This document shows positions 3,883 to 35,250 of a DNA stretch of 64,000 nt, piece by piece; positions within the stretch are counted from its first letter, which is position 1, and the number at the start of each line of letters is the position of its first letter. Location of the stretch: positions 32,001 through 96,000 of IMG/VR virus record IMGVR_UViG_3300036790_000270; one strand, written 5' to 3'. A program made the translations under genes and the position numbers. The DNA comes from a virus. The notes under the pieces were generated by a model. That model was not told the DNA's origin, made no database searches, and was given only the letters and a program-made list of their open reading frames with translations.

Positions 3883-3927
3883 TAACCTTGAGCTGAACCG
3901 CCCTACGGCCGCATCCGGAGCTAGGGC
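3883..3927 (+). promoter_or_regulatory. putative late promoter -10 plus leader RNA motif, copy 1
   Basis: TAACCT (3883-3888), then GCCCTA-C-GGCC-GCATCC-GGAGC-TAGGGC (3900-3927). The same architecture occurs at four other loci. Confidence 0.6.
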
Positions 3928-3947
3928 ACCCGACGAAGGGTGTCCAC

Positions 3948-4268
3948 GTGCGTGATATTCCGCTGATCGCTCCGCAGCCGCAGGGCTGGTACTGCCCCAA
4001 CTGCCTCGTCACCGACGTCACCGCGCCGCTGCCACCGGGCCAGTCGCGCTATCACGCCTGCGCGGGCCTGCACGGGCTGAATGCTCCCCTGATCCGGTCG
4101 GGCCTGGACGCCAAGGTTGAGGCTGAGGAGCGCCAGGACTACCTCAACGGCGACCAGCAGGCGACCGGTGACGACGGCAAGGTCTACATGGCCGTGCGGA
4201 CCACCCGCGATGACGGCGACGACGTGACCGTATTCGCGGGCCTCGCCCACGCAGAGATGAAGGTGTGA
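3948..4268 (+). CDS. hypothetical phage protein with CxxC and HxC motifs
   Basis: ORF track; WYCPNC...YHAC. Confidence 0.6.
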   Translation: MRDIPLIAPQPQGWYCPNCLVTDVTAPLPPGQSRYHACAGLHGLNAPLIRSGLDAKVEAEERQDYLNGDQQATGDDGKVYMAVRTTRDDGDDVTVFAGLAHAEMKV

Positions 4269-4272
4269 CCTA

Positions 4273-4647
4273 ATGGCTTATGTTTCCTTCACGGCGTTCC
4301 CTCGGCGTCATGACCTAGTGGACGAAATTTTCGACGCTTTCAACTCGAACGGGATCTATACCAGTGGCTACTACGACAGTTCCGGTATCGACCGACTCCG
4401 GGTAGCTTCTTACAACCTCAACGGCACGGATATTACTTTCCAGGTGCAGGAGAGTCAGCTCAGTTCAGGGAGTGATTCTGGCGAGGTAGATGAAGGCGCC
4501 GTACAGGTTGTCCGCCAGCAGAGTCTGACCGTAGCCACTGACAACTCGGTGTACTGCGAGGTTCCATTGACGGGAAGATTTTTCTGTTTGGTTCTACAGA
4601 ACGGTGAAGTAGATTCACCCATCGTGATCACGCTTAGGGCGGTCTGA
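4273..4647 (+). CDS. hypothetical protein, possibly a virion beta-sandwich
   Basis: ORF track; tightly packed between neighbours, visibly lower GC. Confidence 0.55.
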   Translation: MAYVSFTAFPRRHDLVDEIFDAFNSNGIYTSGYYDSSGIDRLRVASYNLNGTDITFQVQESQLSSGSDSGEVDEGAVQVVRQQSLTVATDNSVYCEVPLTGRFFCLVLQNGEVDSPIVITLRAV

Positions 4648-4648
4648 A

Positions 4649-5173
4649 ATGTCCTGGTCTGTTAGTGCCATCTTCCAGCAGTCACTGCTGAACCCGCTGA
4701 TGGGCAAGGCCACCGGGTCTACCAACCCCACCACTTTCGGGAGCTGGACGGCCGACACCATCGACGTCGCCCTGTTCCTGACTGGCGCTACCCCGGATAA
4801 AACGGCGGCGTTTGCCTCAATCGGTTACAACACAGGCAGCGTTTGGACTACGGCGAATGAGGCCCCGGGCACCGGCGGGTACACCCAGGGCGGCACGGCG
4901 CTCGCGTCCAAGGCGAACACCGTTGACTCAGGTTCTTCTTCCCTGTGCTTCACGGCGGCTAACCCAAGCTGGACGAGTGCCACCATCTCCGGCGTGTTCG
5001 GGGACTTCGTCTACGATGCCTCGATCACCGCTACCGGCAGCACCGTCACCAAGCAGGGGCTCTGCTTCAACTACTTCGGCGGCTCGCAGTCGGTCACCTC
5101 GGGCACCTTCACCATTCAGTGGGCCACCCCGCCCAGCGGCGGCGTTACCGCGGTCTTCAACGTCAGCGTCTGA
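4649..5173 (+). CDS. putative virion structural protein (S/T/G-rich)
   Basis: Motifs DTIDVALF, NE..GTGGYTQGG, SVTSGTFTIQW resemble small phage fibre/decoration proteins. Located in the structural block. Confidence 0.6.
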   Translation: MSWSVSAIFQQSLLNPLMGKATGSTNPTTFGSWTADTIDVALFLTGATPDKTAAFASIGYNTGSVWTTANEAPGTGGYTQGGTALASKANTVDSGSSSLCFTAANPSWTSATISGVFGDFVYDASITATGSTVTKQGLCFNYFGGSQSVTSGTFTIQWATPPSGGVTAVFNVSV

Positions 5174-5208
5174 CCTTCCCTCCGCTTTACCCCGGGAGGC
5201 GGTGAGGC

Positions 5209-6708
5209 ATGACGATCGCCGCCGTGCCGTCGGGTGGCGCGCTTGGTTCCGCGACCGCCAAGACATTCACCCTGACGCCCAGTACCGTCGGCGACTTCAT
5301 CCTGCTCTGGGTGACCGCGGAGACCGTTGCGGATTATGCCGTTTCGATCAGTAGCAGCAACATCAGCTGGGTTGTCACGCCCCTGGTCGCCCATCACGCG
5401 TTTACGAACAACCTGGTCGTTCAGTCTGTTTTCATCGGTGAGGTCACCAGCACCAGCGGTGCCACGCAGACAATCGTTACGGCCGCGGGCAGCCCGACGC
5501 TCCGGATCGCCTGGCAGGAATTCAGCACTACGGCCGGGTACGCGTCGATCACCCTCAACGTATCGGGTACCACAGACACCCTTTCTAGCGGCACGATGCC
5601 GCCGGTCACCACCACCGTTACCGGTTGCACTTACGCGGGCTACGTCTACGACAACGGCTCCGGTGTCATCGGTACTACCAGCGGTTACAAGTACCAGCTA
5701 GACACCAACAGCAACCAGTACGCGTACAGCACGACGCCTCTGGGCATTAGCACCTACACCCCGAATATCGGTGACGCGAACGGCACGTCCGGTATCGCTG
5801 TCGCCGTCTACGAGGCCGGGGTCACAGCCAGCGCCGGCCTCGCCCACGGCACGGGCGCCGCCCTGCAGCCGCAGGCAGGCTCCGTCGGCCTTCCGGCCGG
5901 CACTGGCACCGCCCAGCCGCCGACAGCGCAGGTCACTGCCCTTGCGGGGCTCGCCCACGGTGCCGGCACCGCGCAGCAGCCGCAGTTCGGCATTGCTAAC
6001 CCGCCTGCCGCCACGGGCACCGGCACCGCGCAGCAGCCGGCCGCTCAGGTCACTGCCCTCGCCGGGCTCGCGCACGCTGCCGGTACCTCCTTCCAGGTGC
6101 CGGCGCCCGCGGGGCTCGCGCACGGCACCGGCACCGCGCAGCAGCCGTCAAAGCTCGTCGAGCCGTCTGCCGGGCTAGCCGCCGGGGCCGGCAACGTGTT
6201 CCAGCCGACACCGCGCATCCTGCGCAACCCGCAGAACCTCGGTGCCGTCGTCACCCCGCTCGGTCCTAACGCGACCGCCGAGCTTCCGGTCACCGGCGGC
6301 ACCCTCACCCTCGCTGACCTGGGCGCGACCTTCGCCCTGGCTAACCTCGGCGCAAGCCTGACGGGATGGACCATGCAGACAGCCACGCTGAACATCCTTG
6401 AGTTCAACGACGTGACGATCAACCTCGCCATTACCAACAACGGCAGCGCGTACAACCTGGCGTCCGCCACGCTGAACATGCTGTTCAAGAGCGCCGCCGG
6501 CACGCCGGACGCGGACGCGCTGCTCTTCTCCTCCGCGGGCGGCTCCCCGGCCATCACCATCACCAACTCAGCTGGCGGCCTGGCGACCGTGCAGATCCCC
6601 AACGACGACCTGGATACCGAGGCGTACAACTTCTACCGGGTCGACGTGGTTGTCGGCGGGTTCCAGAACACCTGCATCAGCGGGTCGGTCACCTGGACGA
6701 GCCTGTAG
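5209..6708 (+). CDS. putative virion fibre/decoration protein with internal repeats
   Basis: Thr/Ser-rich N-terminus, repeated AGLAHG(T/A)GTAQQP units, C-terminal beta-rich attachment-like domain. Confidence 0.6.
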   Translation: MTIAAVPSGGALGSATAKTFTLTPSTVGDFILLWVTAETVADYAVSISSSNISWVVTPLVAHHAFTNNLVVQSVFIGEVTSTSGATQTIVTAAGSPTLRIAWQEFSTTAGYASITLNVSGTTDTLSSGTMPPVTTTVTGCTYAGYVYDNGSGVIGTTSGYKYQLDTNSNQYAYSTTPLGISTYTPNIGDANGTSGIAVAVYEAGVTASAGLAHGTGAALQPQAGSVGLPAGTGTAQPPTAQVTALAGLAHGAGTAQQPQFGIANPPAATGTGTAQQPAAQVTALAGLAHAAGTSFQVPAPAGLAHGTGTAQQPSKLVEPSAGLAAGAGNVFQPTPRILRNPQNLGAVVTPLGPNATAELPVTGGTLTLADLGATFALANLGASLTGWTMQTATLNILEFNDVTINLAITNNGSAYNLASATLNMLFKSAAGTPDADALLFSSAGGSPAITITNSAGGLATVQIPNDDLDTEAYNFYRVDVVVGGFQNTCISGSVTWTSL

Positions 6709-6734
6709 CCTTTCCCGGCTGCCTGACGTGCCGT

Positions 6735-6777
6735 TAAACTCAAGGGGAACTGCCGCGGCCTGAACCAGGAGCCGGCA
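6735..6777 (+). promoter_or_regulatory. putative late promoter -10 plus leader RNA motif, copy 2
   Basis: TAAACT (6735-6740), then TGCCG-C-GGCC-TGAACCA-GGAGC-CGGCA. Confidence 0.6.
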
Positions 6778-6806
6778 TCGGGATTGACCACGATGCCGGA
6801 GTCCTG

Positions 6807-7223
6807 ATGACGATCCTCCTGTCCAGCACTTTCACCGACAACCTGCTCGGCACGGGAACTGAGGGCGTCGCCACCCAGATCGGCAGCGGCACGCTCATTA
6901 TTTACAGTGGCGCTGCCCCGGCGGGCCCGAACGAGTCCCTGTCCGGCAACACGGCGCTGGCGACTTTTACGTTCTCAGTTGCGGGCAGCCAGGGCTCTCC
7001 GGCCGGCGGCGTGATGGACCTGGCGTTCTCCGCTACCACTGTCACCGCCGCCGCCTCCGCGACCGCGACGTTCTTCCGCATTGCCAGCTCGGGCAGCACC
7101 GCCCTGATCCAGGGGACGGTAGCTGTCAGCGGCGGGGACTTCAACCTGTCCAGCACGGCCATCACCTCCGGCGACAACGTAACCATTACCGGCACGCCGA
7201 CGATCTCCTGGCCGGTGAGCTAA
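6807..7223 (+). CDS. putative virion structural protein
   Basis: GTLIIYSG..P, LATFTF, ATATFFRI, IQGTV pattern, as seen in small phage structural proteins. Confidence 0.6.
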   Translation: MTILLSSTFTDNLLGTGTEGVATQIGSGTLIIYSGAAPAGPNESLSGNTALATFTFSVAGSQGSPAGGVMDLAFSATTVTAAASATATFFRIASSGSTALIQGTVAVSGGDFNLSSTAITSGDNVTITGTPTISWPVS

Positions 7224-7225
7224 CC

Positions 7226-7840
7226 ATGGCCAACCAGCAGTGGGTCTGCCTGCTTAACGGCGGCAACCCGTACAGCGCCGGCGCCGGCGCCGCCCTTAGC
7301 TCGGCTGCCACGGCCACCATCTCGCCGGTTAACGGCGTCGCCTCCAACCCGCCGGACATGGCGCAGGTTCAGGCAGCCGGCCAGTCTTACGGCTGGTACC
7401 CCGGCATGCTGGTCCGCGTCACCGCCCGCGGGTACCTCACCACCACTGGCACCAGCGGCACCGTCACGTTCTTCCTCGCTAGCCGGGTCGGTAACTCCGG
7501 CAGCACCTGGGTCACCCTCGCGACCGCCGCCGCCCTGACTACCGGGACGGGCTCGCTAGCCGGCCTGCAGTGGGAGCTGGACGCGCTGTCCCAGTGCACT
7601 GCGGTCGCCGCCACCGGGAACACGGTATCGACGCAGGGGAACCTCACCCTTGTCCCCGTCGCCGCCCAGACGATTCCCACTGGCACCGCGGACATCGTCC
7701 TGTCCCTGCCGAACGCCTCCGGTGTGACCGCGGCGGCGGTCGACACCACGCAGCTGCAGGGGATCTCCATGCGCTGCACCCAGGCGACCAGCGCGTGCAC
7801 CGTCCAGCTCACCCAGTGGCTTGTAGAAGCACTGGACTAG
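7226..7840 (+). CDS. putative virion structural protein
   Basis: ORF track; T/A/G-rich beta-type composition within the structural block. Confidence 0.55.
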   Translation: MANQQWVCLLNGGNPYSAGAGAALSSAATATISPVNGVASNPPDMAQVQAAGQSYGWYPGMLVRVTARGYLTTTGTSGTVTFFLASRVGNSGSTWVTLATAAALTTGTGSLAGLQWELDALSQCTAVAATGNTVSTQGNLTLVPVAAQTIPTGTADIVLSLPNASGVTAAAVDTTQLQGISMRCTQATSACTVQLTQWLVEALD

Positions 7841-7872
7841 CCAGGCCGCCCGTGCCCGGAGGGCGGTGACGC

Positions 7873-10260
7873 ATGACGACCTACCGGCTGTTCCCGTCCA
7901 CCAGCGGGCCGTCGGCCGCCACCAGCTTCAGCGGCGCCTACGGGACCGGCACCAAGTTCCAGGTGACCGCGGGCGGCCTGTGGCTGGCCGGCTTCTGGTG
8001 GTGGGTGTGCGCAACGGGCTCGCAGTCCACCGCGGCGCAGCCGTTCTGCCTGTGGCAGGTGACTGCGTCAGCGGCAGGAATACTCCTGTCCCCGGGTGTG
8101 TCCGTCACTTCCGGCACCTTGTCCGCCGGGTGGAACTACGTCCCGCTGGCCACCCCGGTTGCCCTTACGCAGGGTGCCACTTACCAGGCGGCGACTGCGT
8201 TCAGCAACGCGTTCCCGCTGACCAACAGCCAGTACGCCACCGGTGGCGCCTACGCGGCGGGCATCGTCAACGGGCCGCTCACCGCGTTCAGCGACGGCAC
8301 CGGCACCAACCCGGACCCGTACAGCAACAGCCAGTGCGCCTACCAGACCTCAAGTACCGACCCGACGGTCACGTTCGCCACCGACGGGGACTCCGGGTTC
8401 AACGGCTGGCTGGACGTCCAGGTCACCGACCAGGCGCCCGCCGGGGCCAGCTACCGGATCTGGCCGGACTACCCGGACGTGCTGGTCGGCGTCAGCAGCG
8501 ACACCACCGGCTACATCCTGGCCACCGAGTTCTCCGTGTCGGCGGCCAGCGCGCTCGACCGGATCTGGCACTACTCGCCGTCCGGCGCCGCCTCCCTGCC
8601 GACCCGCTGCAGTATCTGGAACGTCTCCACCACGACGGAGCTCAGCGGCGCGGGTAACACCTCACCGGCGTGGCTGCTGCCCGGCGGCGCCAGTGCCTCG
8701 GCCGGCGGCGGCTGGGTCTACTGCGACTACACCTCTGCAGGGGTAACGCTGGCTGCCGGCACCAGTTACAAGGTCGCCACCTACCACGCCAGCGGCAGCG
8801 AGTGGATGGCGGTCACCCCGGACTACTGGTCAACCGGCGCCGGCACGTCCGGGATCACCAACGGCGTCATCTCCGCGCCGAACAGCGCCTCGGCCAGTCC
8901 CGGGCAGGGCTCGTACGAGACGACCTGGTCCTATCCGTCGCTGTTCATCACCGGCGGTGAGAACTACTGGGTCGACGCGGAGGTCACCCCGCTCACCGCT
9001 ACGGCCGTGCTGCCCGTCCCGCCGCTGCCCGTTCCCCCCGGGCGCCTGTCCCCGGCGGCCTTCCGCTTCTACGCCCGCCCGGTGTCAAGCCCCGCGGCGG
9101 CGGTTAACGCCGAGTCCGGCTCGCTTGCTGTCGCACTGCCCGCCCTCACCACAGCCCTGGCGGGCGCGACCGGGCACAAGGGCCCGCTTGCCGTCACGCT
9201 GCCCACCCTGACGACGTCGCTGGCGGGTACTGCCCAGCACACCGAATCAGGTTCCCTCGCTATCGCGCTGCCGACCCTGACGACGACGCTGACCGGTGCC
9301 GACGGGCATAACGGCGCACTGGCGGTCACGCTGCCCGCCGTGGCGACCAGCCTGGCCGGAACCGCGCAGCACACGGAATCCGGCTCTTTCACGGTCACGC
9401 TGCCGACGCCGGCGACCTCGCTGACCGGTGCCGACGGGCACGGCGGCGCGCTTTCCGTCGTGCTTCCCGCAATGGTGACGTCGCTGAATGCGGCGCGGGG
9501 CGGCGGCGGTGCCTTCACGATCACGCTGCCGGCTCTTGTCACCTCGCTGGCGGGTACCGCGCAGCACACCGAGTCGGGCCCGCTTGCCGTCGTGCTGCCC
9601 GCGCTAGTTAGCAGCCTGACGGGCGCGGCCGGGCACAAGGGCCCGTTCACGGTCACGCTGCCGACCCTGGCGACATTGCTGGCGGGCACGTCGCAGCACA
9701 CCGAGTCCGGGCCGTTCACGGTCACGCTGCCGGCTCTCGTCACGTCGCTGACCGGAACCAACGGGACGCCAGGCGCGGTAACCGGCGCGTTCCTGATCGA
9801 GCTGCCCCCCGGCAAGCGTGACCAGGCGGAAACCGGGCCGCTCGCGCTGCCGCTGCCGGCCCTGTCCCTGAGCCTGACCGGGGAGCACGGCCGCCAGGGC
9901 GCCCTGCAGCTGGCACTGCCGGCACTCGTCACCGGGCTGGCCGGCCACGCGCCGGTCGTGATCCCCGGGGCGTTCACCCCGTCGCTTCCCGTCCCGGTAA
10001 CCGGCCTGACCGGGAAGGTCGCGCACTGCGGCCCGCTAGGGATCTCGTTCGGGATACCCGGTGACGGCCTGACCCGCTTCCAGATGTTCGGCGCTGAGTC
10101 TCGCGGCGCCGCCGTGCTAACGCTTCCCGTGCCCCGGCTGACCATGGCCGCGCAGGTACCCGACGAGCCAGGCACCCGTTCCCATTTCCGGCTCGGCCGC
10201 TGGATTTCCGCCCGGCTGCCCCGCAAGTACAGCCAGACCGAAGAAGAGGAGACACCGTGA
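7873..10260 (+). CDS. virion fibre-like protein: two aromatic-rich beta domains plus an approximately 20-aa repeat stalk
   Basis: Duplicated GTKF/ATEF...W.DV.V domains (DUF4082-like by inspection), followed by tandem (E)SG.L.V.LP.L.TSL.G repeats at about 9110-9940. Confidence 0.6.
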   Translation: MTTYRLFPSTSGPSAATSFSGAYGTGTKFQVTAGGLWLAGFWWWVCATGSQSTAAQPFCLWQVTASAAGILLSPGVSVTSGTLSAGWNYVPLATPVALTQGATYQAATAFSNAFPLTNSQYATGGAYAAGIVNGPLTAFSDGTGTNPDPYSNSQCAYQTSSTDPTVTFATDGDSGFNGWLDVQVTDQAPAGASYRIWPDYPDVLVGVSSDTTGYILATEFSVSAASALDRIWHYSPSGAASLPTRCSIWNVSTTTELSGAGNTSPAWLLPGGASASAGGGWVYCDYTSAGVTLAAGTSYKVATYHASGSEWMAVTPDYWSTGAGTSGITNGVISAPNSASASPGQGSYETTWSYPSLFITGGENYWVDAEVTPLTATAVLPVPPLPVPPGRLSPAAFRFYARPVSSPAAAVNAESGSLAVALPALTTALAGATGHKGPLAVTLPTLTTSLAGTAQHTESGSLAIALPTLTTTLTGADGHNGALAVTLPAVATSLAGTAQHTESGSFTVTLPTPATSLTGADGHGGALSVVLPAMVTSLNAARGGGGAFTITLPALVTSLAGTAQHTESGPLAVVLPALVSSLTGAAGHKGPFTVTLPTLATLLAGTSQHTESGPFTVTLPALVTSLTGTNGTPGAVTGAFLIELPPGKRDQAETGPLALPLPALSLSLTGEHGRQGALQLALPALVTGLAGHAPVVIPGAFTPSLPVPVTGLTGKVAHCGPLGISFGIPGDGLTRFQMFGAESRGAAVLTLPVPRLTMAAQVPDEPGTRSHFRLGRWISARLPRKYSQTEEEETP

Positions 10261-11291
10261 GCGCCCAGGTGTATTACGATTCGCCGACTGAGGCGTCTGC
10301 GATCGTCCCGGTCACCTTTACCGCTGCAACGGGCGTCGTCACCGACCCGAGCTCGATTAGCTGCGTCGTCGTCGACCCGACCGGCGCGCAGGTCACCTAC
10401 ACCTACGGCGCGTCGGGCCCGGACAACACGATCACCCGCACCGCGTCGGGAAACTACGCGCTGAACCTCACCGGGATCGACCTGGCGGGGCTGTACACGA
10501 CGATCTGGGTCGGCACCGGCAACGGCGTCCAGCAGACGAGCCCGTACACGGTGCGCATCGTCCCGCTGTCTGCCGTCGGTACCGGGATGCAGTACTGGTA
10601 CACCGGCCGGGAAGAACTCAAGTCCCGGCTGAACATCACCGACAGCAACTCGGACTACGAGATCCAGATTGCCATCCAGGCGGTCACTAACTGGATAAAC
10701 TCGTACGCCGGCCGTCACTTCTACCAGCTCACCGAGACGCGGACGTACTGCCCGACGAATATCTGGGAGCTGGCAGTCGACGATATCGTGTCGACGCCCG
10801 CTGTCGCCGCGGCCACCCAGGTCAACCTGGATTATGACGGCGACGGCATCTACGAGGTCAACTGGGGAAACCCGGCGCCCCCGGTCGGCACCGGCCTCAA
10901 CTACGTACTGAAGCTGGGCACCCCGGGCAATTACGAGGACAACTACAACGTCAACTCAGCTGGCGTCCCCCGGCCGTACACCCAGCTGCAGGCCCTCATG
11001 AGCGGGCAGGGCGAGGACCCCGCAGGCGGCGGCTGGCTGCCCTTTATCTGGCCCTACACCCACCTTAACCGGGTGCAGGTCATCGCCACCTGGGGCTGGC
11101 CCGTTATCCCGCCGAGCGTCGCCCAGGCCTCGTTGCTGCTGTGCACCGACGTCTTCAAGTCAAAAGACGCGCCCTGGGGTATTGCCGGGACAGCCGAAAC
11201 CGGGCTGATGCGCGTGCAAAGTAACCCGTGGGCAGTCGAATTCCTGCACGATTTCATCAACACGCGCAGGAAGGTGGGAGTTTTATACTAA
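10257..11291 (+). CDS. head-tail adaptor-like protein with N-terminal extension
   Basis: YTGREELKSRL...INSYAGRHF...VQVIATWGWP.IP..V.QASLL, an actinophage adaptor pattern. Confidence 0.7.
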   Translation: MSAQVYYDSPTEASAIVPVTFTAATGVVTDPSSISCVVVDPTGAQVTYTYGASGPDNTITRTASGNYALNLTGIDLAGLYTTIWVGTGNGVQQTSPYTVRIVPLSAVGTGMQYWYTGREELKSRLNITDSNSDYEIQIAIQAVTNWINSYAGRHFYQLTETRTYCPTNIWELAVDDIVSTPAVAAATQVNLDYDGDGIYEVNWGNPAPPVGTGLNYVLKLGTPGNYEDNYNVNSAGVPRPYTQLQALMSGQGEDPAGGGWLPFIWPYTHLNRVQVIATWGWPVIPPSVAQASLLLCTDVFKSKDAPWGIAGTAETGLMRVQSNPWAVEFLHDFINTRRKVGVLY

Positions 11292-11340
11292 GGCTTTTCG
11301 TATGCTGTTCTCATGCGCGAGGTTCAGTTGCACGGGAAGG

Positions 11341-11394
11341 TGCGGTCCCGGCGTGCATCCTTTGGGTTACGTCCGTGGGGTGGCCGGGACCGCA
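11341..11394 (-). ncRNA. solo TIGR-like unit closed by a perfect 12-bp stem
   Basis: On +: tgcggtcccggc-g-tgcatcctt-tgggttacg-tccgtgggg-tg-gccgggaccgca. Confidence 0.7.
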
Positions 11395-11442
11395 GCCTGT
11401 ACAGCACCGGGCTTCCGTGTTTTAGTCCCGTAAGGTGAGGTC

Positions 11443-12453
11443 ATGGCGCCGAAGGCTAAGGTCACCGCGGTCTCGTCGAAGACCACGTCCACGGCGGCCA
11501 GCGGGCTGCAGCTGTCGGCCGCGCAGTGGAAGGTGTACAGCTCTGTTTACACCGCTACCCAGCGCAGGCTGGCGATCGCCGCTGCCGCCAAGTCGCTGCG
11601 CAAGTCCCGGCTGAGCGCCGCCTACGCGACGCAGAAGAAGGCCGCGGTGGCGCGCTCGGTTGCCTCGGCGGCGGCGATCGCCGCGAACGCGACCCGGGTG
11701 TCCTACCGGAACTCGGTGCTGGCGCACCAGAACACCGCGCTGAAGAACCGGGTGTACGCGGACATGGCGCAGCACATGACGATCGCCGGGCGCGCCCAGT
11801 ACATCGCCGGCGGCGAGAAGTCCTACGCGCAGGCCGCCGTCTTGCGGACGCTCACCACCGCGCAGGCCACCACCATCGAGGCGGCCACGTTCGCGAAGGC
11901 CGTCAAGACGGCGAAGGTAGCGGCCAGCGGCGCGAAGGTAACCGTGGCGGGCGCTGCGATAGCGAAGGCAGCCAAGGCCGCCGCGACCGCTGCCGCGAAA
12001 GCCTCCCCGGCCGGCCGTACCGCGCCCCGCCCCGCTCACCTGATGCTGCCGCTGTTCCGCGAGCCGTTCGGCGACCCCGAGGGCTACGACTGCGTCGCGG
12101 CGGCGATCGCCACCCACCTTGACTTCCGCACGGCCTACCGGATGACGCCGCAGGAGTACGGCACGCTGACCGCCCGGCTCGGGGACGGGCCGGCCCTGGA
12201 GGACGCGCTGAATGTCGTAGCCGGGGACGGCCTCAGCGGCTCCTACCGCCTCAGCAGCTTCGGCCTGACGGAGCCGCGGGCGGGCACGCGCCTGGTCGCC
12301 GGCTTTGCCACGGCTAACGGGCCGCACGCTGCGCTGCTGCTGTCAGACCTGCTGGTCTTCAGCTGGGGTGAGGTGCTGAGGCTGCAGGACGTGATGCTCC
12401 CGGGAACCGCGATCGAGGAGGCCTGGGACCTGACCTGGGAGCCGCTAGGCTGA
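11443..12453 (+). CDS. Ala/Lys-rich protein with a possible C-terminal cysteine-peptidase-like domain
   Basis: Basic helical N-terminus. C-terminal YDCVAAAIA...GPHAALL...FSWG. Confidence 0.5.
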   Translation: MAPKAKVTAVSSKTTSTAASGLQLSAAQWKVYSSVYTATQRRLAIAAAAKSLRKSRLSAAYATQKKAAVARSVASAAAIAANATRVSYRNSVLAHQNTALKNRVYADMAQHMTIAGRAQYIAGGEKSYAQAAVLRTLTTAQATTIEAATFAKAVKTAKVAASGAKVTVAGAAIAKAAKAAATAAAKASPAGRTAPRPAHLMLPLFREPFGDPEGYDCVAAAIATHLDFRTAYRMTPQEYGTLTARLGDGPALEDALNVVAGDGLSGSYRLSSFGLTEPRAGTRLVAGFATANGPHAALLLSDLLVFSWGEVLRLQDVMLPGTAIEEAWDLTWEPLG

Positions 12454-12523
12454 GCTACATGGGAAGTTCCGGGAACAAGAAGCCATTCGACGCCGCTGCC
12501 GCCCGCGATCTCGACGAGACCCG

Positions 12524-12997: not shown

Positions 12998-13290
12998 TGG
13001 CGCACGCTTACCTGTCGACCGCCTGCTATCACAGCAAGCACGGCGTCTTGTGCCGCCAGACGTGCAAGTACTGTGACGCGCCCTGCTCGTGCACCTGCCA
13101 CCGGGGCATTCTCCCGGTACCGTGGGTCGATCAGGCGCGAGCCGTTGCTGCGGAGCTGTTCAGCGCGATTTACCCGGCTGACGTGCCCGATGCCCTAGCG
13201 CAGCGAATCGAGACTGACCCGGCCTTGTTCTGGCTGCGCGGCGAGATAGCACCGGACGGGCAATGGCACGAACCTGGGGACGAGGGTTAG
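12997..13290 (+). CDS. Cys/His-rich hypothetical protein
   Basis: YLSTACYH..H..CRQTCKYCDAPCSCTCH. Confidence 0.55.
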   Translation: MAHAYLSTACYHSKHGVLCRQTCKYCDAPCSCTCHRGILPVPWVDQARAVAAELFSAIYPADVPDALAQRIETDPALFWLRGEIAPDGQWHEPGDEG

Positions 13291-14731: not shown

Positions 14732-14763
14732 ACCCGTTCCTTTTTTCGGAAAAGGGGTCTGAC

Positions 14764-27814: not shown

Positions 27815-28158
27815 TGCGCGGCCTTTCCCCAGCGCCCCGGTGGCTTCTGCTTCCGCCACACCAGGTTGCCCGGCGAGGCGTCCAGCTTGCCCCCGGGCCC
27901 GTGCCCTGCCTCGTACCCGGGGGGCCGGGGACGGTCAAAAGCCTCCAGCACCAGGTGGTGAACGTAGCGCCGGAGCATCGTGCCGTTCCGGTACAGCCGG
28001 ACCTCGGGGTACCCGTCGTTCTCCCGGATGTACCAGTTCATCAGCTTGCCGCCGCGAACTCCCCGGAGGGTTTTCCGCGGCAGGGAGCGCACGCTGCCCA
28101 GGCTGCTGACCTCGTACAGGCCCTCCCAGCCGTACACCGGCCGCCACTCTTCGTCCAT
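27811..28158 (-). CDS. NUMOD4-HNH homing endonuclease-like protein (possibly degenerate)
   Basis: EEWRPVYGWEGLYEVSSLGSVRS (NUMOD4), VHHLVLEAF...EAGH...NL.W. Confidence 0.8.
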   Translation of the reverse strand: MDEEWRPVYGWEGLYEVSSLGSVRSLPRKTLRGVRGGKLMNWYIRENDGYPEVRLYRNGTMLRRYVHHLVLEAFDRPRPPGYEAGHGPGGKLDASPGNLVWRKQKPPGRWGKAAH

Positions 28159-28205: not shown

Positions 28206-31200
28206 GTGACCGCGACCCCCCCGAAGCCGAGCCTGGTCAAGACCACCGCGCTGTCGATGGCGCAGGCGGTGACCGACCGGCTGACCGCGCTGCTGCCGAC
28301 GGTACCGAGCGCCGAGTCGCCGGTAACCGTCTACCAGGCGGGCACCCTGGGCGTCGGCGGCCAGCTGAACGCGCCCACCTCGGTCTTCCCCGCGGGCGCC
28401 GGCTACTACGGGGTGTGGACCGCACCGGACCTGAACGACGGCAACGCCTACACGGTGCAGGTGGAGTGCTTCGGCGGCGGCGGGGGCGGCGGCGGCGGCT
28501 CGACCACGACCGGCGGGGGCGGCGGCGGCGGGGCGGAGTACGCCAGGGAAACCTACTACCCGGTCAAGCCCGGCGCGGACTACGTGTGGACGGTCGGGGT
28601 GCCGGGCAGCGCGGGCACCGCCAACAGCGACAACAACCAGGGCGGGACCGCGGGCGGCAGCGGCGGCGACACGGTCTTCGACATCGCCGGGAGCGGGGTG
28701 GCGGGCGGCATCACGGCGCACGGCGGCCAGGGCGGTGACGTCGGTAACACCGGGATCGGCGGGACGGCCGGGTCGGGCAGTATCAACACCACCGAGTTCA
28801 GCGGCGGCGCCGGAGGTACCAATCTTCCCGGTTCTGGCGGCGGCGGGTCCGGCGGCCAGGGCGGTACCGACAATCCCGTTAGCCTGAACCAGGGAGGCAT
28901 GCTGAGCGCGCCGCCGCTCGCCTGGCTGGTGCTGAACGACGCCTCCTCCAACGGCCAGCTGAACGACAACAGCGGGAACAACAACACCGGCGCGGTCGGC
29001 AACCCGGGCGGCGGCAGCGGCGGCTTCACCTATGCCCAGCCGGGCGCGCCTGCCCAGGTGCCCGCCTACTCCAACGGCGCGAGCCCGCCGAGCTCACCCA
29101 ACCCGAGCGCCGCCGGGGACCAGCTGCGCTTCACGCTCAGCTCGCTGACCTCACCGTCGGCGTACTTCTACACGCCCGGCTACAGCGCCAACGGGTCGCA
29201 GTTCACCGTCTCCGGCTGGTTCACCCCCGACCCGACCGGCACCTGGGGCAACACCGCGACCGGCTCACGGGCCGTGCTGGTCGGCAACAACGCGGGCTAC
29301 GCGACCGCCAGCCGGGCCGGGGTCACCTTGTACCTGGTGAACAACGGGACGCCTGCCAACCAGAGCTGGCAGCTGGTCTACTACTGCTCCGACTTCTACA
29401 ACTACCAGACGGTCAGCACACCGCTGAAGCCGGTGGCGGGCACCGCGGTCTACATCGTCGCGACCTTTAGCTCCGGCACCATGAAGCTGTACGTCAACGG
29501 GACGCTCGCCGGCAGCGCCAGCGCTGGCTTCAGCAGCATTCCCGGCTGGCCGACCACGCCGTACTCGATGCTGGCGGGCGCCAACCCGACCCTGACCGGC
29601 GACTGGTTCTTCGGCTTCATGAGCAACCTCTGGTTCGCTGACGGGGTGCTGAACGCGGCGGGAGTCAGCCAGGCGTACGCTGGCTCGGGCGGCAGCTCCA
29701 CCGAGGGCGGTGCGGGCGGCGGCGCATCGGGCGGGCCCGCTGCCAACGGGGGCGCGGGGGCTGCTGGCAGCGGGTCCTCCGGCGGGGCAGGCGGTACCCC
29801 GGCAACGCAGCCCGCAACCTCGATCGGGCTGAACACCCCGGCGTCGGCTGGCATCGCGGGCGCGGCCGGCAGCTCCGGCAACTCCGGCATCACCGGCGCG
29901 GCCGGCGCGGGCGGCGGCGGGGCAGGCTCCAGCTCAGCGCCCCCGGTGATCACCACCGTGCAGGTCCCGTTCGTCACCGCGGCTTCCTACTGCGGGACGG
30001 ACGCGGGCGGCGGCGCGGCGGGCGCGGTCTACAACCCGGTCATCCAGGGCACCACGGGGCGGCTGTTCACCGGCGGCCTGGCCAGCGACACCGCCAGCGG
30101 CTCAAAGAACTCGCTGCTGGTCCTGCCGCCCAACCTGGCGGCCAGCCTCGCCAGCGGCAGCTACACGGTACTGCGGGTCACCCTCACCGTCACCAATGCC
30201 AACACCCAGGGCAGTCAGGCGGCGCTGATGCAAGTCGGCTGGAGCGCTGACACGTTCCTGCCGATCACCTATGAGGCCGGCGACATTGCCGGGTCTGCCG
30301 GGGTGATGGAGATCCCGGCCGGGGCGTACACGGTGACCGCGGACCTCACTGAGTCCCAGCTGGGGCTCTACCTGCAGAACGGCGGCGCGACCGCCCTGGT
30401 GCTCGGGCCGGGCAGTACCCCCACCTTCGCTGCCTACAGCGCGGACACAGCGGCTGACTTTTACACCGCGGTCTACGGGCCGGGTGCCACTGATAACGCG
30501 GGAAACTCCCTGCAGCCCTACCTGACCGTCACCTACGCGCAGGCGACCACCGTCCAGCAGGGCTCCCCGGGCGGGGCCGGCGCCATCCTGCTGACCTACC
30601 TGAACCAGGCGCAGACCCTTGTCGGCACCTGGAACTCCACTGACGGGATCAATGCCAGCGGCGGCCAGCTGACTGAGACGACCGTTGTCCTCGGCTCGAC
30701 GATCACCGACGCGGCCCTCGACGGCGCCCGCACGCTGAACCGCGGTGACGCCCGGCGCAGCATGCGGGCAGCTCGGGCACGGGGCCGGGCACTGGGGGCT
30801 CGCCCCGGCCGCCGCCTCGGCGCTGTTCCCGGGGCGCCGGGCACCATCCTCGGTTACACCGCTGGCACCACTACGGTTACCCAGGCGACCGCCGGAAGTT
30901 ACACGTTCACCGTGCCCGCGGACGTCACCTCCCTGAACGTGCAGTGCTGGGGCGGCGGCGGCGGTGGCACGGGCGGCAGCAACACGCAGGGGCAGGCAGG
31001 CGGCGGCGGCGGGGGGTACGCCGGGGAACCGAACTACGTGGTCAGCCCGGGGGACGTCATCAGTTACGTCGTCGGGGCGGCCGGCGCGGGCGACCACGTC
31101 GGGACTTCCACCAGCGCTAACGGGGGCAATACCCAGTTCGACACGACCGGCGTGGCGGGCGGCGGCGTGCTGGCTAACGGCGGCAAGTCGTACAGCAGCA

Positions 31201-32183
31201 GCCTCAACTACGGGCCCGGCGGCAGCTCGTCCGGCAATACGGTCAGCTTTGCCGGCGGCAACGGCGGTCCGCTTTACTCCGGTCAGTCCAACGGCTCGGG
31301 CGGCGGCGGCTCCGGCGGCACCACGGGGAACGGCGGCGGCGGCAGCAACGGCGGCGGGGCGGGCCGGGCAGGCAACGGCGGCGGTGAGCCGGGTGGCGCG
31401 GGCGCGGGTACCGGCAGTGGCTCCGGCGGCTCGGCGCCCGGGGGCGGCGGCGGCGGCGCGAGCAAGGGCACCAGTTCTTATACCGGCGGCTCCGGCGGCG
31501 CGGGCCAGGTGCTGATCACCTACGCATCGTCCACCGCGCTGGCCACCTCGATCGCGACCGCCTCCGGCAGCGACGCAGCGGGCAACACCTACCCGGCGGG
31601 CGTGATGACCGCGGCGCTGCAGGTGAACGGCACCACCACCACCGAAAACCAGACGGTGTCCAACACCACGACCACCGACATTCTGGCGGTCACCGCTAAC
31701 GCGACCGTCGGCGGCAACCACACGGTCACCGGCAACGTCGCCGCGGCTACCTATACCGGTGCGTCCGGCGGCGCGATGGAGAACAGCACCGGCATTCACT
31801 CCTCCGGCACCGTGGAGGCTGACGGCGGCCTGACAACCGGGGGCGGCGCCAGCATCAGCGGTGGCGCGAGCATCTCTGGCGGCATCGAGAACGACAGCAT
31901 GCACGCCTCGGCGAACGTGCAGATCGACGGTACCGGAAGCGTCAACGGCACGCTCACCGCGAGTTCCGGCATCGAAACCTCCAGCATGCACTCCACCGGG
32001 AACGTGCAGATCGACGGCACGCTCAACGGGCAGCCGGTCGGGGGCGGCGTAACAGGCGGCCAGGCGGGCGTATCGACGGTGTCCTCCGGTGAATCAAGTT
32101 ACGACCAAACACAGATGACCTCTTACGCGTCAGCAATTAACGGCATCATTTCCCGGCTAGAGTCATCCGGGCTTATCGGGTAA
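28206..32183 (+). CDS. minor tail/fibre protein, Gly-rich with LamG-like domain
   Basis: Gly-rich modules. FTVSGWF...YIVATFSSGTMKLYVNG...FFGFMSNL is a LamG-like pattern. C-terminal beta-helix-like repeats. Confidence 0.75.
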   Translation: MTATPPKPSLVKTTALSMAQAVTDRLTALLPTVPSAESPVTVYQAGTLGVGGQLNAPTSVFPAGAGYYGVWTAPDLNDGNAYTVQVECFGGGGGGGGGSTTTGGGGGGGAEYARETYYPVKPGADYVWTVGVPGSAGTANSDNNQGGTAGGSGGDTVFDIAGSGVAGGITAHGGQGGDVGNTGIGGTAGSGSINTTEFSGGAGGTNLPGSGGGGSGGQGGTDNPVSLNQGGMLSAPPLAWLVLNDASSNGQLNDNSGNNNTGAVGNPGGGSGGFTYAQPGAPAQVPAYSNGASPPSSPNPSAAGDQLRFTLSSLTSPSAYFYTPGYSANGSQFTVSGWFTPDPTGTWGNTATGSRAVLVGNNAGYATASRAGVTLYLVNNGTPANQSWQLVYYCSDFYNYQTVSTPLKPVAGTAVYIVATFSSGTMKLYVNGTLAGSASAGFSSIPGWPTTPYSMLAGANPTLTGDWFFGFMSNLWFADGVLNAAGVSQAYAGSGGSSTEGGAGGGASGGPAANGGAGAAGSGSSGGAGGTPATQPATSIGLNTPASAGIAGAAGSSGNSGITGAAGAGGGGAGSSSAPPVITTVQVPFVTAASYCGTDAGGGAAGAVYNPVIQGTTGRLFTGGLASDTASGSKNSLLVLPPNLAASLASGSYTVLRVTLTVTNANTQGSQAALMQVGWSADTFLPITYEAGDIAGSAGVMEIPAGAYTVTADLTESQLGLYLQNGGATALVLGPGSTPTFAAYSADTAADFYTAVYGPGATDNAGNSLQPYLTVTYAQATTVQQGSPGGAGAILLTYLNQAQTLVGTWNSTDGINASGGQLTETTVVLGSTITDAALDGARTLNRGDARRSMRAARARGRALGARPGRRLGAVPGAPGTILGYTAGTTTVTQATAGSYTFTVPADVTSLNVQCWGGGGGGTGGSNTQGQAGGGGGGYAGEPNYVVSPGDVISYVVGAAGAGDHVGTSTSANGGNTQFDTTGVAGGGVLANGGKSYSSSLNYGPGGSSSGNTVSFAGGNGGPLYSGQSNGSGGGGSGGTTGNGGGGSNGGGAGRAGNGGGEPGGAGAGTGSGSGGSAPGGGGGGASKGTSSYTGGSGGAGQVLITYASSTALATSIATASGSDAAGNTYPAGVMTAALQVNGTTTTENQTVSNTTTTDILAVTANATVGGNHTVTGNVAAATYTGASGGAMENSTGIHSSGTVEADGGLTTGGGASISGGASISGGIENDSMHASANVQIDGTGSVNGTLTASSGIETSSMHSTGNVQIDGTLNGQPVGGGVTGGQAGVSTVSSGESSYDQTQMTSYASAINGIISRLESSGLIG

Positions 32184-32194
32184 AGGCTGGATAG

Positions 32195-33934
32195 ATGGCA
32201 CTGGAGAAGCTGGACGCCACCCAGATCTGCACCTGGGCGCCGCCGTTGCCGCGACGGGCGTTCCCCGTTCAGGCGGCCGGGGTGACCAGCGACAGCGTCG
32301 GGGTGAGCCTGGGCGGGGCGACGGTCAACGGCGTGCAGTACGGGTACTTCCTGCTGAACACCAGCCAGTGGGGGGTCAGCCCGAGTCTTAACCTGCCGCC
32401 GGTCAGCGTCGGGGAGCGGTTCCAGCTGTGCACGGCGGTTTCCGGGCGCTCGTTCCTGCCGATGCCCGGGTTCGAGGGCGGTGAGGCGCTGCCGCCGTCG
32501 CTGGTTGCCGATGCCGGGGCGGGGGGCACTACCTACGCGCCGGACCTGTTCAACGTGTCGATGATGTTCCCGACCGCGTACGCGGTGAAAGACCCGACGC
32601 TGTGCTCGGTGGTCTCCACCCGGCAGGACGGGGCTAACTCCTGGTACGTTTACTACTCGCCGTACAACCCGGCTATCTCGGTTACCCCGGGCGGCGACGG
32701 CCTGGTGACGGTGCCGGAGCTGTCGTCCCCCAAGTGGCTCGGCCAGATCGGGCACGTGGCCGGCGTGGACTACTCCTACTCGATCCCCGGCGGTCCTGAC
32801 CAGCTGACCTGCGTGCTGCAGACCGAGCCGGACTACCGGACCGACGCGATCAACCCGGGGCGGGTCGTCACCGCGCACCGCGGCGGCTCCTGCATCTGGG
32901 AGGGCGTCCTGACCGAGCCGGTCCCGGCCTCTACCACCGGGTGGACGCTGACCGCTAACGGCTGCGGTACCTACGGCACCAACTTCGGCGCCTGGTGGCA
33001 GCTTGACTACCCGGACTCCTGGTCGGTGGACGGCCCGATTGACCTGGCGATCGGGCGCGGCCTGCGCTGGGCGAACCCGGGCCAGTACTCGGCGGGCGGC
33101 AGCGCCTACCTGGGTCCCGTCCAGGAGCCGGGCAGCCTGACCCTCACCGACTTCATGAACCTGCTGTGCACCGGCGGCGCCCTGTCCTGGCAGCTGGTGC
33201 AGCCACCGTCGGCGAGCTCGTTCCCGCCCGGCCCGTGGGTACTGAACCTGTTCCCGCTGCCCACCGACTCCTCGGGCAACCCGATCGCGTCGCAGCCGTC
33301 GGACGTGCTGGCCTCCGAGCTGTTCACCTTCGACCGGTGGTCCCGTTCCGACTTGTCCGCTACGTCCTCGCGCCGGCCGCCGGACCTGTACATCATCAAC
33401 ACCAACCCGGTCGGCCGGACGATCGCCGCGGACATTAACACGGTCATCGTCTACTACGAGGTAACCGACGACACGACGGCCACCTCGACGACGACGGCAG
33501 CGGCGGCCACCTACGGCACCACGTTCGCGGACATTCCCGGCTCGGTAGCCCGGCACGGGCGCCTGGAGTACTTCCTCGACGTGAGCTCCGCCGGGGTGAT
33601 GACGCAGCCGCAGGCCGCCCAGATCGCGCAGAACGTGCTGAGCAAGTACGTGCGGGCGAACTTCTCCGGCAGCTTCAGCGTGCAGCCCGGCCAGCTGCTG
33701 AACGTCGGCGGCTACCCGGTTGACCTGGGTTGCAACTGGGGCGGCTACATGGCCTCGCTGCAGGTGGAGAACTTCGCGGCCGGCGGTGAGGTGGGCTTCG
33801 GCCCGATCACCTTCCAGATCGGCGAGTACGAGTTCAACGACGATTCCCAGACAGCCATGATCACGCCGTACCAGAATGCGCGCACGGACATGTCGTCGGT
33901 GATAGCCCAGCTTTACCCGGGTAAGTTCACGTAG
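32195..33934 (+). CDS. minor tail protein
   Basis: Position. YSIPGG, IWEGVLTEP, S.ARHGRLE patterns resemble tail hub proteins. Confidence 0.65.
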   Translation: MALEKLDATQICTWAPPLPRRAFPVQAAGVTSDSVGVSLGGATVNGVQYGYFLLNTSQWGVSPSLNLPPVSVGERFQLCTAVSGRSFLPMPGFEGGEALPPSLVADAGAGGTTYAPDLFNVSMMFPTAYAVKDPTLCSVVSTRQDGANSWYVYYSPYNPAISVTPGGDGLVTVPELSSPKWLGQIGHVAGVDYSYSIPGGPDQLTCVLQTEPDYRTDAINPGRVVTAHRGGSCIWEGVLTEPVPASTTGWTLTANGCGTYGTNFGAWWQLDYPDSWSVDGPIDLAIGRGLRWANPGQYSAGGSAYLGPVQEPGSLTLTDFMNLLCTGGALSWQLVQPPSASSFPPGPWVLNLFPLPTDSSGNPIASQPSDVLASELFTFDRWSRSDLSATSSRRPPDLYIINTNPVGRTIAADINTVIVYYEVTDDTTATSTTTAAAATYGTTFADIPGSVARHGRLEYFLDVSSAGVMTQPQAAQIAQNVLSKYVRANFSGSFSVQPGQLLNVGGYPVDLGCNWGGYMASLQVENFAAGGEVGFGPITFQIGEYEFNDDSQTAMITPYQNARTDMSSVIAQLYPGKFT

Positions 33935-34577
33935 TTTTTACTTCCGGGGGCGGACCTGTTGCTAGTACGCATTCAGCGGGGTCGAGAGGGACTGACGGGT
34001 AATGGTGCACTGTAACTTCACCGGCTGATGTATAAGGGATGCCAGCTTCCAGCCAGGACTGCACGAGCAGCCAGTCTTCCGCAGGATGCGCCTGCTCCCA
34101 GGTAGCTGTCTTCAGTACCCAGCGCCGGTGCATGAGCATTGAGCTTTGCACGCGTCCGTGGGCAGGTCGCCCGTCTCCGATCCGGACTACCCCGGATGTC
34201 ATGTGGACCAAGGCCCGGGAAAAACCGAAGCCTGCGTCAGGCTCGTTAATTAGAGCTTTAGCTAGGACTTCCAGGTGCCTAGGCTCCCAACAGTCATCGT
34301 CGTCCAAGTAGGCAATGAACTCACCCCGGGCTAGTTCAAGGCCGCGTAGTCGTGCGAGGTGCCCCCAGTGCCGCTTCGGGTCATGCCCAGGTAGTTCGCT
34401 GTACTTAATGTGCGCTGGCCAGTCGATGGCAGCCAGGACCTGGTCAGGGCCGTCCGATACGATGACATGCTCGCACGGCCATTGCTGTGCCTTAACCGAC
34501 GGGACGCACCTACCTAGAAGTGTGCTGTGCCGCTGCCACGACGGGGTAATAACGGAAACTAGCGGCTCGTCCGTCAC
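33927..34577 (-). CDS. glycosyltransferase family 2 (paralogue of 2008-2637)
   Basis: PLVSVITPSWQR, HVIVSDGPD, RHWGH.ARL, ARGEFIAYLDDDD, EDW.LVQ.W.EAG. Confidence 0.88.
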   Translation of the reverse strand: MTDEPLVSVITPSWQRHSTLLGRCVPSVKAQQWPCEHVIVSDGPDQVLAAIDWPAHIKYSELPGHDPKRHWGHLARLRGLELARGEFIAYLDDDDCWEPRHLEVLAKALINEPDAGFGFSRALVHMTSGVVRIGDGRPAHGRVQSSMLMHRRWVLKTATWEQAHPAEDWLLVQSWLEAGIPYTSAGEVTVHHYPSVPLDPAECVLATGPPPEVKTT

Positions 34578-34972
34578 GAGGTGTTAGCGACGACCATCCA
34601 GTAGGTGACGTCCATACTGTAGCCGTCACCTCCGCTTTGCAACTTTACTGACCCCTGAAATCGCCACTTTGTGTTATCTGTAGGGTGAGGGCCGTCTGCG
34701 GACAGCCACGCATTACCAAATCCGGATACCTGGATGCCCGAGCCTAGAACCGTGGTTCCCGCTGGGATAGCCATGTCGTACGTCGTATTCGACGTAACAG
34801 TGTCGTCGTAGGTAAGCAGCTGCAAGCCGAGTGCGCCAATCCAGCTGACTTCGGCCTGTCCGTCAACTACAGACACCGTGTCCGGGTCAACGATGTTAAG
34901 CGCCGTACCGCAGGAAAGTGCCGAAGTCTGATAGACAGCGTGAAGCAGCCCGTTAGCGTCAGGAATAGCCAT
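34574..34972 (-). CDS. hypothetical protein (beta-rich)
   Basis: ORF track; RBS AGGAAGG upstream; coupled to the glycosyltransferase gene. Confidence 0.6.
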   Translation of the reverse strand: MAIPDANGLLHAVYQTSALSCGTALNIVDPDTVSVVDGQAEVSWIGALGLQLLTYDDTVTSNTTYDMAIPAGTTVLGSGIQVSGFGNAWLSADGPHPTDNTKWRFQGSVKLQSGGDGYSMDVTYWMVVANTS

Positions 34973-35209
34973 AACGTGCCTTCCTAATTTTAATCGTTGT
35001 TTGCCTTAAAGTTTAATCCAGTTACCGTCGTTAGGGCCGTGGTCGTTCACGTCAACCAGCGGCCACTCGGGAACGTCAACGCGGGCGGGCGCCACCTGGC
35101 CGGCCCGGGGCCAGTGCTCCTCGCCGTTACCGAGCTTGCCGTCCAGGCCTGATACGTCTTTCACAAGGCCAGGGTACGCGCAGGCCTCGCTGTGGATCAG
35201 CACGCCCGG

Positions 35210-35250
35210 CATACTGGTGAGTAGGTCCTGCGGCCGTGCCCGGAGCCAGG
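35210..35250 (+). promoter_or_regulatory. putative late promoter -10 plus leader RNA motif, copy 5
   Basis: CATACT (35210-35215), then CCTG-C-GGCC-GTGCCC-GGAGC-CAGG. Confidence 0.55.

Follow-up and report, generated by a model that had tools for sequence, protein, structure and literature searches.

A covarying hairpin motif with a conserved internal loop, repeated behind promoter-like hexamers in an uncultured phage

What is the role of a short hairpin-forming sequence that recurs at operon starts of a phage genome, and would it act as DNA or as RNA? The question is raised by a 64,000-nucleotide (nt) stretch of viral DNA, here called the window, which comprises bases 32001–96000 of the 117,211-base-pair (bp) IMG/VR virus record IMGVR_UViG_3300036790_000270; the record is classed as linear and has an estimated completeness of 82%. 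An earlier note on the window had described five copies of a motif in which a stem encloses GGCC, a variable hairpin and GGAGC, and had proposed an unnamed leader RNA that coordinates late genes as an antitermination or activator site. [quoted passage not shown]

The order of elements (stem, N, GGCC, variable hairpin, GGAGC, stem') is the same at all five sites, each of which reads exactly as the note had it. We divide the motif into an outer helix, P1, of 3–7 bp, a fixed 3x3 internal loop with 5'-H-G-G on one strand and 5'-A-G-C on the other (H never being G), and an inner helix, P2, whose first two pairs are C-G and whose extension is free in form; among these copies and those of relatives, GGCC and GGAGC are separated by an insert of 4 to ~40 nt with no fixed sequence. 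A covariance model, R1, was built from 14 copies with short loops, and it recovers the other copies, with low scores for long P2 inserts. The five sites are listed below with their TANNNT-like hexamers, which end 10–12 nt before the stem, as had been claimed; a start codon follows each motif after 20–34 nt.

3883–3888, plus strand: −10-like hexamer TAACCT, 11 nt before the stem of copy 1
3900–3927, plus strand: canonical copy 1, GCCCTA-C-GGCC-N6-GGAGC-TAGGGC, 31.5 bits with R1; 20 nt upstream of GTG 3948, the first in a run of small open reading frames (ORFs)
6735–6740, plus strand: −10-like hexamer TAAACT
6751–6777, plus strand: canonical copy 2, TGCCG-C-GGCC-N7-GGAGC-CGGCA, 40.5 bits with R1; 29 nt upstream of ATG 6807 of a virion structural protein gene (phrog_3758)
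14683–14688, plus strand: −10-like hexamer TACACT
14701–14731, plus strand: canonical copy 3, CCG-A-GGCC-N15-GGAGC-CGG, with P2 extended by an ACGTG/CACGT hairpin; 32 nt upstream of GTG 14764 of the major tail protein gene, with orthologues before the major tail gene in relatives
16750–16755, plus strand: −10-like hexamer TAGGGT
16766–16792, plus strand: canonical copy 4, GCCG-C-GGCC-N9-GGAGC-CGGC, 34.8 bits with R1; 31 nt upstream of GTG 16824 of the tape measure protein gene
35210–35215, plus strand: −10-like hexamer CATACT, the first base of which departs from TANNNT
35227–35250, plus strand: canonical copy 5, CCTG-C-GGCC-N6-GGAGC-CAGG, 32.3 bits with R1; 33 nt upstream of GTG 35284, the next gene (35616–35996) encoding a protein with one hydrophobic segment

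The bare core GGCC-N5–16-GGAGC is not enriched: it matches the window 37 times, and shuffled sequences 29.7 times on average. A flanking stem of at least 3 bp with a 1-nt spacer accompanies eight of the 37, all on the plus strand; five of these are the intergenic, hexamer-preceded sites listed above, and the other three (15790, 26224 and 44154) have no hexamer. Stems of at least 4 bp occur nine times in the whole record (shuffle mean 1.74, maximum 6 in 100 shuffles). The five sites are genuine and the count of five an understatement: the window contains a sixth, permuted copy (see below), and the record as a whole has nine canonical and two permuted copies. The canonical copies outside the window are as follows.

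Record 14896, minus strand: before a leftward gene for a 317-amino-acid (aa) papain-like protein
Record 20287: before the portal gene
Record 23994: before the capsid gene
Record 97583: before a 1241-aa DUF5906/exonuclease (primase/helicase-exonuclease) replication gene

A restriction to late genes, as first supposed, does not hold, since copies also precede the primase/helicase-exonuclease gene and the leftward peptidase-like gene. The 317-aa protein downstream of the minus-strand copy (record 13895–14848, minus strand; L077) is conserved in relatives G001–G004; its N-terminus, MARTPGRYGRRSPKRARALR, is rich in arginine and precedes Cys and His motifs like those of papain. Between the copy and the 1241-aa replication gene there is a 13-codon ORF with a strong Shine-Dalgarno (SD) sequence (record 97643–97684; L079 ~2643–2684), which could encode a leader peptide.

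The association with promoter-like hexamers is specific to the stemmed copies. In the record, a TANNNT hexamer ending 13–20 nt upstream is present at 8 of 86 core matches; these eight coincide with the stemmed copies, and the ninth copy has CATACT. Such a hexamer has a background frequency of 2.0% of positions. GGCC follows the hexamer at a nearly constant distance of 14–18 nt. The lower-GC relatives G003 and G005 have a near-consensus promoter upstream (TTGTCA-N16-TACTAT or TATTAT), and a scan with the strict TTGACA/TATAAT consensus gave no match. Every copy is in the sense orientation relative to its downstream gene, with the end of P1 15–59 nt from the start codon overall and 20–33 nt in 23 of 27 leaders. 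Judging from the hexamers, the motif would sit at the transcript 5' end, just downstream of the −10-like sequence. A short C-rich tract abuts the motif on its 3' side, the second base 3' of P1 being C in 45 of 60 curated copies and the third in 33 of 60.

That the stem changes while pairing is kept, as the earlier note stated, is supported by covariation. In an alignment of 36 distinct copies, which was fitted to R1 and is biased towards the model for that reason, the covariation score is 0.335, against 0.120 in shuffles (none of 500 reach the observed score) and at most 0.094 with slid partners; pairing cells amount to 81% versus 68.5% in shuffles, and changes on both sides are seen at eight of ten pairs. 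The third and fourth pairs of P2, which the search descriptor did not require, form in 47 of 60 copies (third pair) and in 43 of 58 (fourth pair), each using G-C, C-G, U-A and A-U, and at unimposed pairs G-U-type combinations outnumber A-C by 17 to 8. RNAalifold applied to a plain MAFFT alignment of six capsid leaders, from genomes of 55–68% GC, predicts P1, the internal loop and P2 unaided. The spacer N in the 60 curated copies is C in 31, T in 17, A in 12 and G in none, which fits an N that does not pair with the C of AGC and selection for an open loop.

The sixth copy in the window has the same parts in a different order.

22486–22491, plus strand: −10-like hexamer TAGGGT, which overlaps TATAGG and is followed after 8 nt by the permuted copy's GGAGC
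22499–22529, plus strand: circularly permuted copy, G-GG-AGC-GCTCGGC-AGACC-GCTGAGC-T-GG-CC-T

Here the sequence order is GG-AGC-P1-loop-P1'-N-GG-CC, so that the internal loop is unchanged and the hairpin loop closes P1 rather than P2; the minimum free energy (MFE) fold includes this hairpin, which precedes a 1759-aa tail gene (start at 22535 or 22553). The G001 orthologue has an equal arrangement and a different P1. Circular permutation is the strongest sign in these sequences that the internal loop is the functional unit. A third topology is found between two leftward genes at record 108240–108322, minus strand (L079 13240–13335), where the same AGC / C-GG internal loop lies between a 14-bp outer helix and a 6-bp inner helix with a 30-nt loop; in its orthologue in G001 the inner helix and loop differ.

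A site acting at the DNA level, either a downstream promoter element or a protein operator on double-stranded or extruded DNA, would account for the tight linkage between the −10-like hexamer and GGCC, itself a palindrome. However, the GGCC–GGAGC spacing is far from constant, the stems change with pairing kept, the permuted topologies keep the loop and not the linear order, and some copies have no hexamer at all. The variable spacing, the permutation, the constant sense orientation and the excess of G-U-type pairs together argue against a double-stranded DNA site, and we consider one very improbable.

We found no counterpart of the motif among described RNA families. Rfam 15 at gathering scores reports only a tRNA gene (58174–58246, minus strand, 48.3 bits) in the whole window, and permissive searches of window 3800–17000 (expectation value, E, ≤5) and of three relatives' loci (E≤1) gave only unrelated chance matches. 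Literature searches, supplements aside, did not find a description of the motif, and the earlier suggestion that it is unnamed agrees with these searches.

One resemblance is to helix 8 of signal recognition particle (SRP) RNA (RF00169 and RF01854), and the motif might be a mimic that binds host Ffh to hijack or titrate it. Both have an xGG 5' strand, an AGC 3' strand and a C-G-rich distal stem: the Rfam consensus of bacterial SRP RNA, as it maps on two actinobacterial SRP RNAs, has 5'-CAGG and 5'-AGCA beside a short, loop-closed, C-G-rich stem, and the phage motif has 5'-HGG and 5'-AGC beside two C-G pairs in an equal strand arrangement, with GGTC variants occurring and with adjacent non-canonical pairs of GG opposite AG, a feature that is invariant by definition of the motif. 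Passages of two papers describe the symmetric loop of SRP RNA as the SRP54/Ffh-binding surface (PMC5115805, PMC4605306), and a passage of the second calls its A-C pair invariant (PMC4605306). The phage loop, however, is 3x3 and the SRP loop 4x4; A is at the A-C position in only 12 of 60 copies; the asymmetric loop and the GNRA tetraloop are both absent from the copies; with filters off and E≤10, R1 does not match helix 8 in either of the two SRP RNAs; and the Rfam SRP models have no match on the leaders. We therefore retain SRP mimicry as a resemblance rather than a membership, and as an explanation give it very little credence.

Other likenesses are looser. A kink-turn consists of a 3-nt bulge followed by tandem sheared G-A and A-G pairs, and was rejected because the phage loop is symmetric, 3x3, with one strand GG and not GA. 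A CRISPR (clustered regularly interspaced short palindromic repeat)-like P2 in one sublineage and domain V of group II introns (the AGC triad) were dropped, the likeness extending to only a few letters. Sites of the T4 RegB endoribonuclease are GGAG sequences in leaders, and GGAG is also conserved here in intergenic leaders of many phage mRNAs, but it is inside a covarying hairpin and distinct from the true SD, and there is no RegB match in the Pfam scan. Mycobacteriophage clusters have start-associated sequences and other repeated intergenic motifs, which are likewise short and repeated before many actinobacteriophage genes, whereas the present motif is a structured hairpin 20–33 nt upstream of the start and not the SD itself.

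The position of the motif brings its 3' strand close to the ribosome-binding site. Within this strand is an SD-like GGAG, and the strand is complementary to sequence next to the ribosome-binding site, with a duplex energy of −13.0 kcal/mol against its own downstream region, compared to −11.7 ± 0.15 kcal/mol for permuted downstream regions (best of 30 permutations −12.2); control duplexes gave −10.7 kcal/mol with its own upstream region and −10.4 kcal/mol for the reversed strand. In a second lineage, RNAalifold gives as the consensus fold of the leaders, in eight of eight, a 12-bp helix of GGAGCCGGGACC with a stretch that ends ~4 nt before the ATG and is a near-perfect reverse complement of GGAGCCGGGA (helix −19.6 kcal/mol). 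The minimum-energy fold of the window leader at 6751 is an alternative hairpin that uses GGAGCCGGCAUCG and buries the SD (MFE −28.7 kcal/mol, z −3.76, none of 200 shuffles as good; duplex −19.2 kcal/mol).

6766–6806, plus strand: alternative hairpin, uses the motif 3' strand GGAGCCGGCATCG and sequesters the SD GGAG; incompatible with copy 2

A different alternative is seen in the major tail leader (window 14724–14746), where GGAGC can pair with GTTCC, followed by T6; this weak terminator-like pairing is conserved in relatives L012–L015 and could be an attenuator specific to the major tail gene.

A pair of mutually exclusive folds in which one blocks the ribosome-binding site follows the logic of a translational switch, and our best reading, held tentatively and as somewhat short of probable, is a 5'-UTR switch that a trans-acting ligand would lock, so freeing the ribosome-binding site. 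The element would act in cis as an RNA module with which phage mRNAs begin: a TANNNT promoter of host type, a few nt upstream, would drive its transcription, and it would end about 20–33 nt before the first start codon. Its 3' strand, comprising the SD-like GGAGC and the 3' arm of P1, would pair either with its own 5' strand, in which case the motif forms, or with sequence beside the ribosome-binding site, in which case the site is closed; the motif would be the thermodynamically weaker fold, yet transcribed first. A ligand recognising the internal loop, most likely a phage or host protein, would hold the motif in place and leave the ribosome-binding site accessible. The sequences themselves show the motif, its covariation, its linkage to hexamer and start codon, and the alternative complementarity; we infer action as RNA in vivo, competition between the two folds, a ligand, and the direction in which it acts.

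There are precedents for parts of this scheme. Com of phage Mu, which acts on mom mRNA, is a phage factor that binds a hairpin upstream of a translation-inhibiting structure, and translational riboswitches and Mu Com-type leaders have in common with the proposed switch a 5'-UTR sensor hairpin, a strand that alternatively pairs beside the ribosome-binding site, and two exclusive folds. They differ in that Pfam finds no Com-like zinc finger here, that 9–11 copies stand at most operon starts rather than before one gene, and that the sensor, compared with riboswitch-type leaders, consists of no more than a 3x3 internal loop flanked by two short helices. A bolder interpretation, which we regard as possible but doubtful, is that the motif represents a new class of riboregulator, a minimal aptamer-like HGG/AGC hairpin, tolerant of permutation, that would switch on first-cistron translation of most transcription units; the sensed ligand would be a dedicated phage or host protein, possibly a small molecule, and the result would be a genome-wide translational 'late switch' in a large uncultured actinobacteriophage lineage.

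Several observations weigh against a ligand-locked switch. Thermodynamic folding of whole leaders seldom returns the motif. The strength of the alternative pairing is uneven in the record, about half of the copies pairing strongly and others weakly; the leaders at 14701, 35227 and 14896 (minus strand), three of the record's own eight, reach only −5.6 to −6.9 kcal/mol. None of the 12 pairs in the second-lineage helix has a compensatory change, the support for it coming from conservation. Over 27 leaders, the stretch from motif to start does not exceed shuffles in stability (mean z −0.36), on which ground an SD-sequestering second hairpin was rejected as a general feature, and among the six leaders of the window |z| is about 1 or lower in five. 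No RNA-binding regulator was found among the 133 and 45 proteins scanned with Pfam and PHROGs. A phage-encoded binder was also sought among the core non-structural genes common to G001–G004 (exonuclease, HNH endonuclease, methyltransferase, helicase/polymerase, Ku and terminase), none of which is an obvious RNA binder. In addition, the 60-copy set was curated by us, and the promoter link is not universal, copies of one sublineage following the major tail gene without a TANNNT.

In that sublineage (L028 4440–4535, L055 4455–4567 and similar loci) the copy, GCA-C-GGCC...GGAGC-TGC, is located between the major tail stop and the next gene, lacks a TANNNT hexamer and is preceded by another hairpin. 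This arrangement bears on a second explanation, that of a 5'-terminal stabiliser or processing module, in which the hairpin, with or without a bound protein, would shield the 5' end from 5'-end-dependent RNases or mark an endonuclease site, and would raise message half-life instead of switching translation. A motif behind a hairpin directly after the major tail stop, with no hexamer, would fit processing to a structured 5' end; elsewhere P1 is only a few nt after the predicted start, given a hexamer ending 10–12 nt before it; and relatives with two copies keep the motif at the capsid and major tail genes, whose products are needed in the highest copy number. A generic protective hairpin nevertheless needs no invariant loop, no exclusion of G at N and no complementarity to the region of the ribosome-binding site, and the permuted copy with a 30-nt loop and 14-bp outer helix is not at a predicted 5' end. 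We regard a stabilising or processing role as unlikely.

The antitermination reading of the earlier note corresponds to a co-transcriptional recruitment site in the style of nut, put, TAR or the LoaP hairpin, where the nascent hairpin would load a factor on RNA polymerase that suppresses pausing or termination. The motif does lie in the first ~40 nt of each predicted transcript, directly after the promoter hexamer; its loop sequence is conserved, like that of protein-binding nut-type sites; and the major tail leader has the conserved, weak terminator-like pairing described above. Lambda nut (boxA plus boxB) and HK022 put are also promoter-proximal phage leader hairpins with a conserved protein- or polymerase-binding feature. 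However, boxA-like words (in the region −60 to +110 around copies) occur near only 2 of 25 copies, U-rich tails follow 3 of 25 (major tail leaders only), and terminator-like sites in window 3000–22900 are at chance level, 10 being found and 10.0 expected from shuffles. There is no fixed GNRA-like pentaloop of the boxB type but a loop of variable length and sequence, and a single hairpin rather than two. Known processive antitermination systems have one or two sites, whereas here there are 9–11 copies per genome, each with its own promoter, those at 14701 and 16766 being only 2 kilobases apart. Nor does recruitment need a short distance to the start codon or pairing with the ribosome-binding-site region. 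Pfam did not find the NusG/LoaP, N or Q families, and had no match to an N-type arginine-rich antiterminator among 133 proteins, although such proteins are small and diverse and one arginine-rich N-terminus is present on the 317-aa papain-like protein. We consider recruitment of an antitermination factor improbable. The idea of a leader RNA element is supported, the motif being RNA-like in its covariation, sense orientation and permuted topologies and proximal to the hexamer, while antitermination is not favoured because we found no boxA and no consistent U-tract; many copies with their own promoters, close to start codons and with a 3' strand complementary to the ribosome-binding-site region, favour translation control.

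Is the motif peculiar to this record? A search with the major tail protein identified 68 IMG/VR loci at 48–91% identity, and in many of these one copy of the motif lies ~60 nt upstream of the major tail gene and another precedes the tape measure gene. Four related genomes, complete or large, contain the following copies.

G001: 9 copies, orthologous to this record's copies
G002: about 8 copies, orthologous to this record's copies
G004: 2 copies, at the capsid and major tail genes
G003 (55% GC): 1 canonical copy before the capsid gene and 1 permuted copy before the major tail gene

G003 and G004 accordingly retain the motif before the capsid and major tail genes only. A strict pattern consisting of the hexamer, CCG-N-GGCC and GGAGCCGG matches 107 IMG/VR stretches, of which 80 loci were listed and 72 distinct matches examined. 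Among these 72, N is C in 27, A in 19, T in 18 and G in 8, the matches with G having no start site as judged by eye, and the third P2 pair is paired in 51. The genes downstream of the strict-pattern matches include those for intein-bearing 900-aa proteins, endolysin, connector and a DUF927 primase. In second-lineage loci L160, L194, L215, L236 and L237 the gene behind the motif encodes a protein of ~700–910 aa with an intein-like LAGLIDADG/Hom_end insertion, which is absent from relatives of 559–585 aa.

Outside these phages the motif was not recovered. Three metagenome-assembled genomes with major tail relatives (one of them, G006, unpublished) gave only weak R1 matches (E 0.28–0.89). Among 151 Actinomycetota genomes, with 47–150 first-look candidates scored per genome, seven have a single R1 match at E≤0.01, none with a TANNNT and all GC-rich and coding-like by eye; the motif is thus 'not found' in them rather than 'absent'. 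The mycobacteriophages Omega and Ariel have no strong R1 match (best 21.7 bits), and by term search neither 'promoter' nor 'stem-loop' appears in the main text of the Cluster J paper (PMC3706429).

The remaining gene content identifies the type of phage and points to its host. The phage comes from soil: the three sequencing runs listed as containing window 7000–16999 are of soil DNA, with no RNA run among them. The window is ~67% GC and its genes are those of a long-tailed phage: large terminase, portal, prohead protease and major capsid genes are immediately to its left, and within it are genes for a virion protein, head-tail adaptor, tail terminator, major tail protein, a 1836-aa tape measure protein and large glycine-rich tail proteins. 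Among the head genes is one for a 118-aa protein with an Ion_trans_2 ion-channel domain (record 27687–28043; L078 9687–10040). That the host is an actinobacterium is suggested by Ku, an Rv2632c-like protein, an Rpf-type transglycosylase and DUF3631, and the major tail gene has relatives in contigs of the three Actinomycetota metagenome-assembled genomes mentioned above, the host assignment resting only partly on G006. The portal protein is ~30% identical to those of the Cluster J mycobacteriophages Omega and Ariel, the nearest cultured phages; searches of the cultured phage collection gave no DNA match, and no protein match for the 499-aa ORF or the major tail protein. Genes for sugar modification are numerous (window 1–3600, 13263–14363 and 43489–46568; record 29391–32946) and encode glycosyltransferases, an epimerase/dehydratase, a C-methyltransferase, a cupin, a polysaccharide deacetylase and GH16, with one glycosyltransferase gene located among the tail genes; such a set suggests that virion proteins or the cell envelope are glycosylated.

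The timing of gene expression in actinobacteriophages is mostly explained by repressors and promoters, and to our knowledge control by leader RNA has barely been documented in them. Here one small structured RNA module is reused at 9–11 operon starts per genome and conserved across phages of 55–68% GC, and it offers a defined bait in the search for a new RNA-binding factor. Should it prove to be a translational switch locked by a ligand, high-GC hosts would gain a compact and portable control part, and RNA biology a natural example of a circularly permuted motif; if it is only a stabilising hairpin, it could still serve to mark where transcription units start in the genomes of uncultured phages.

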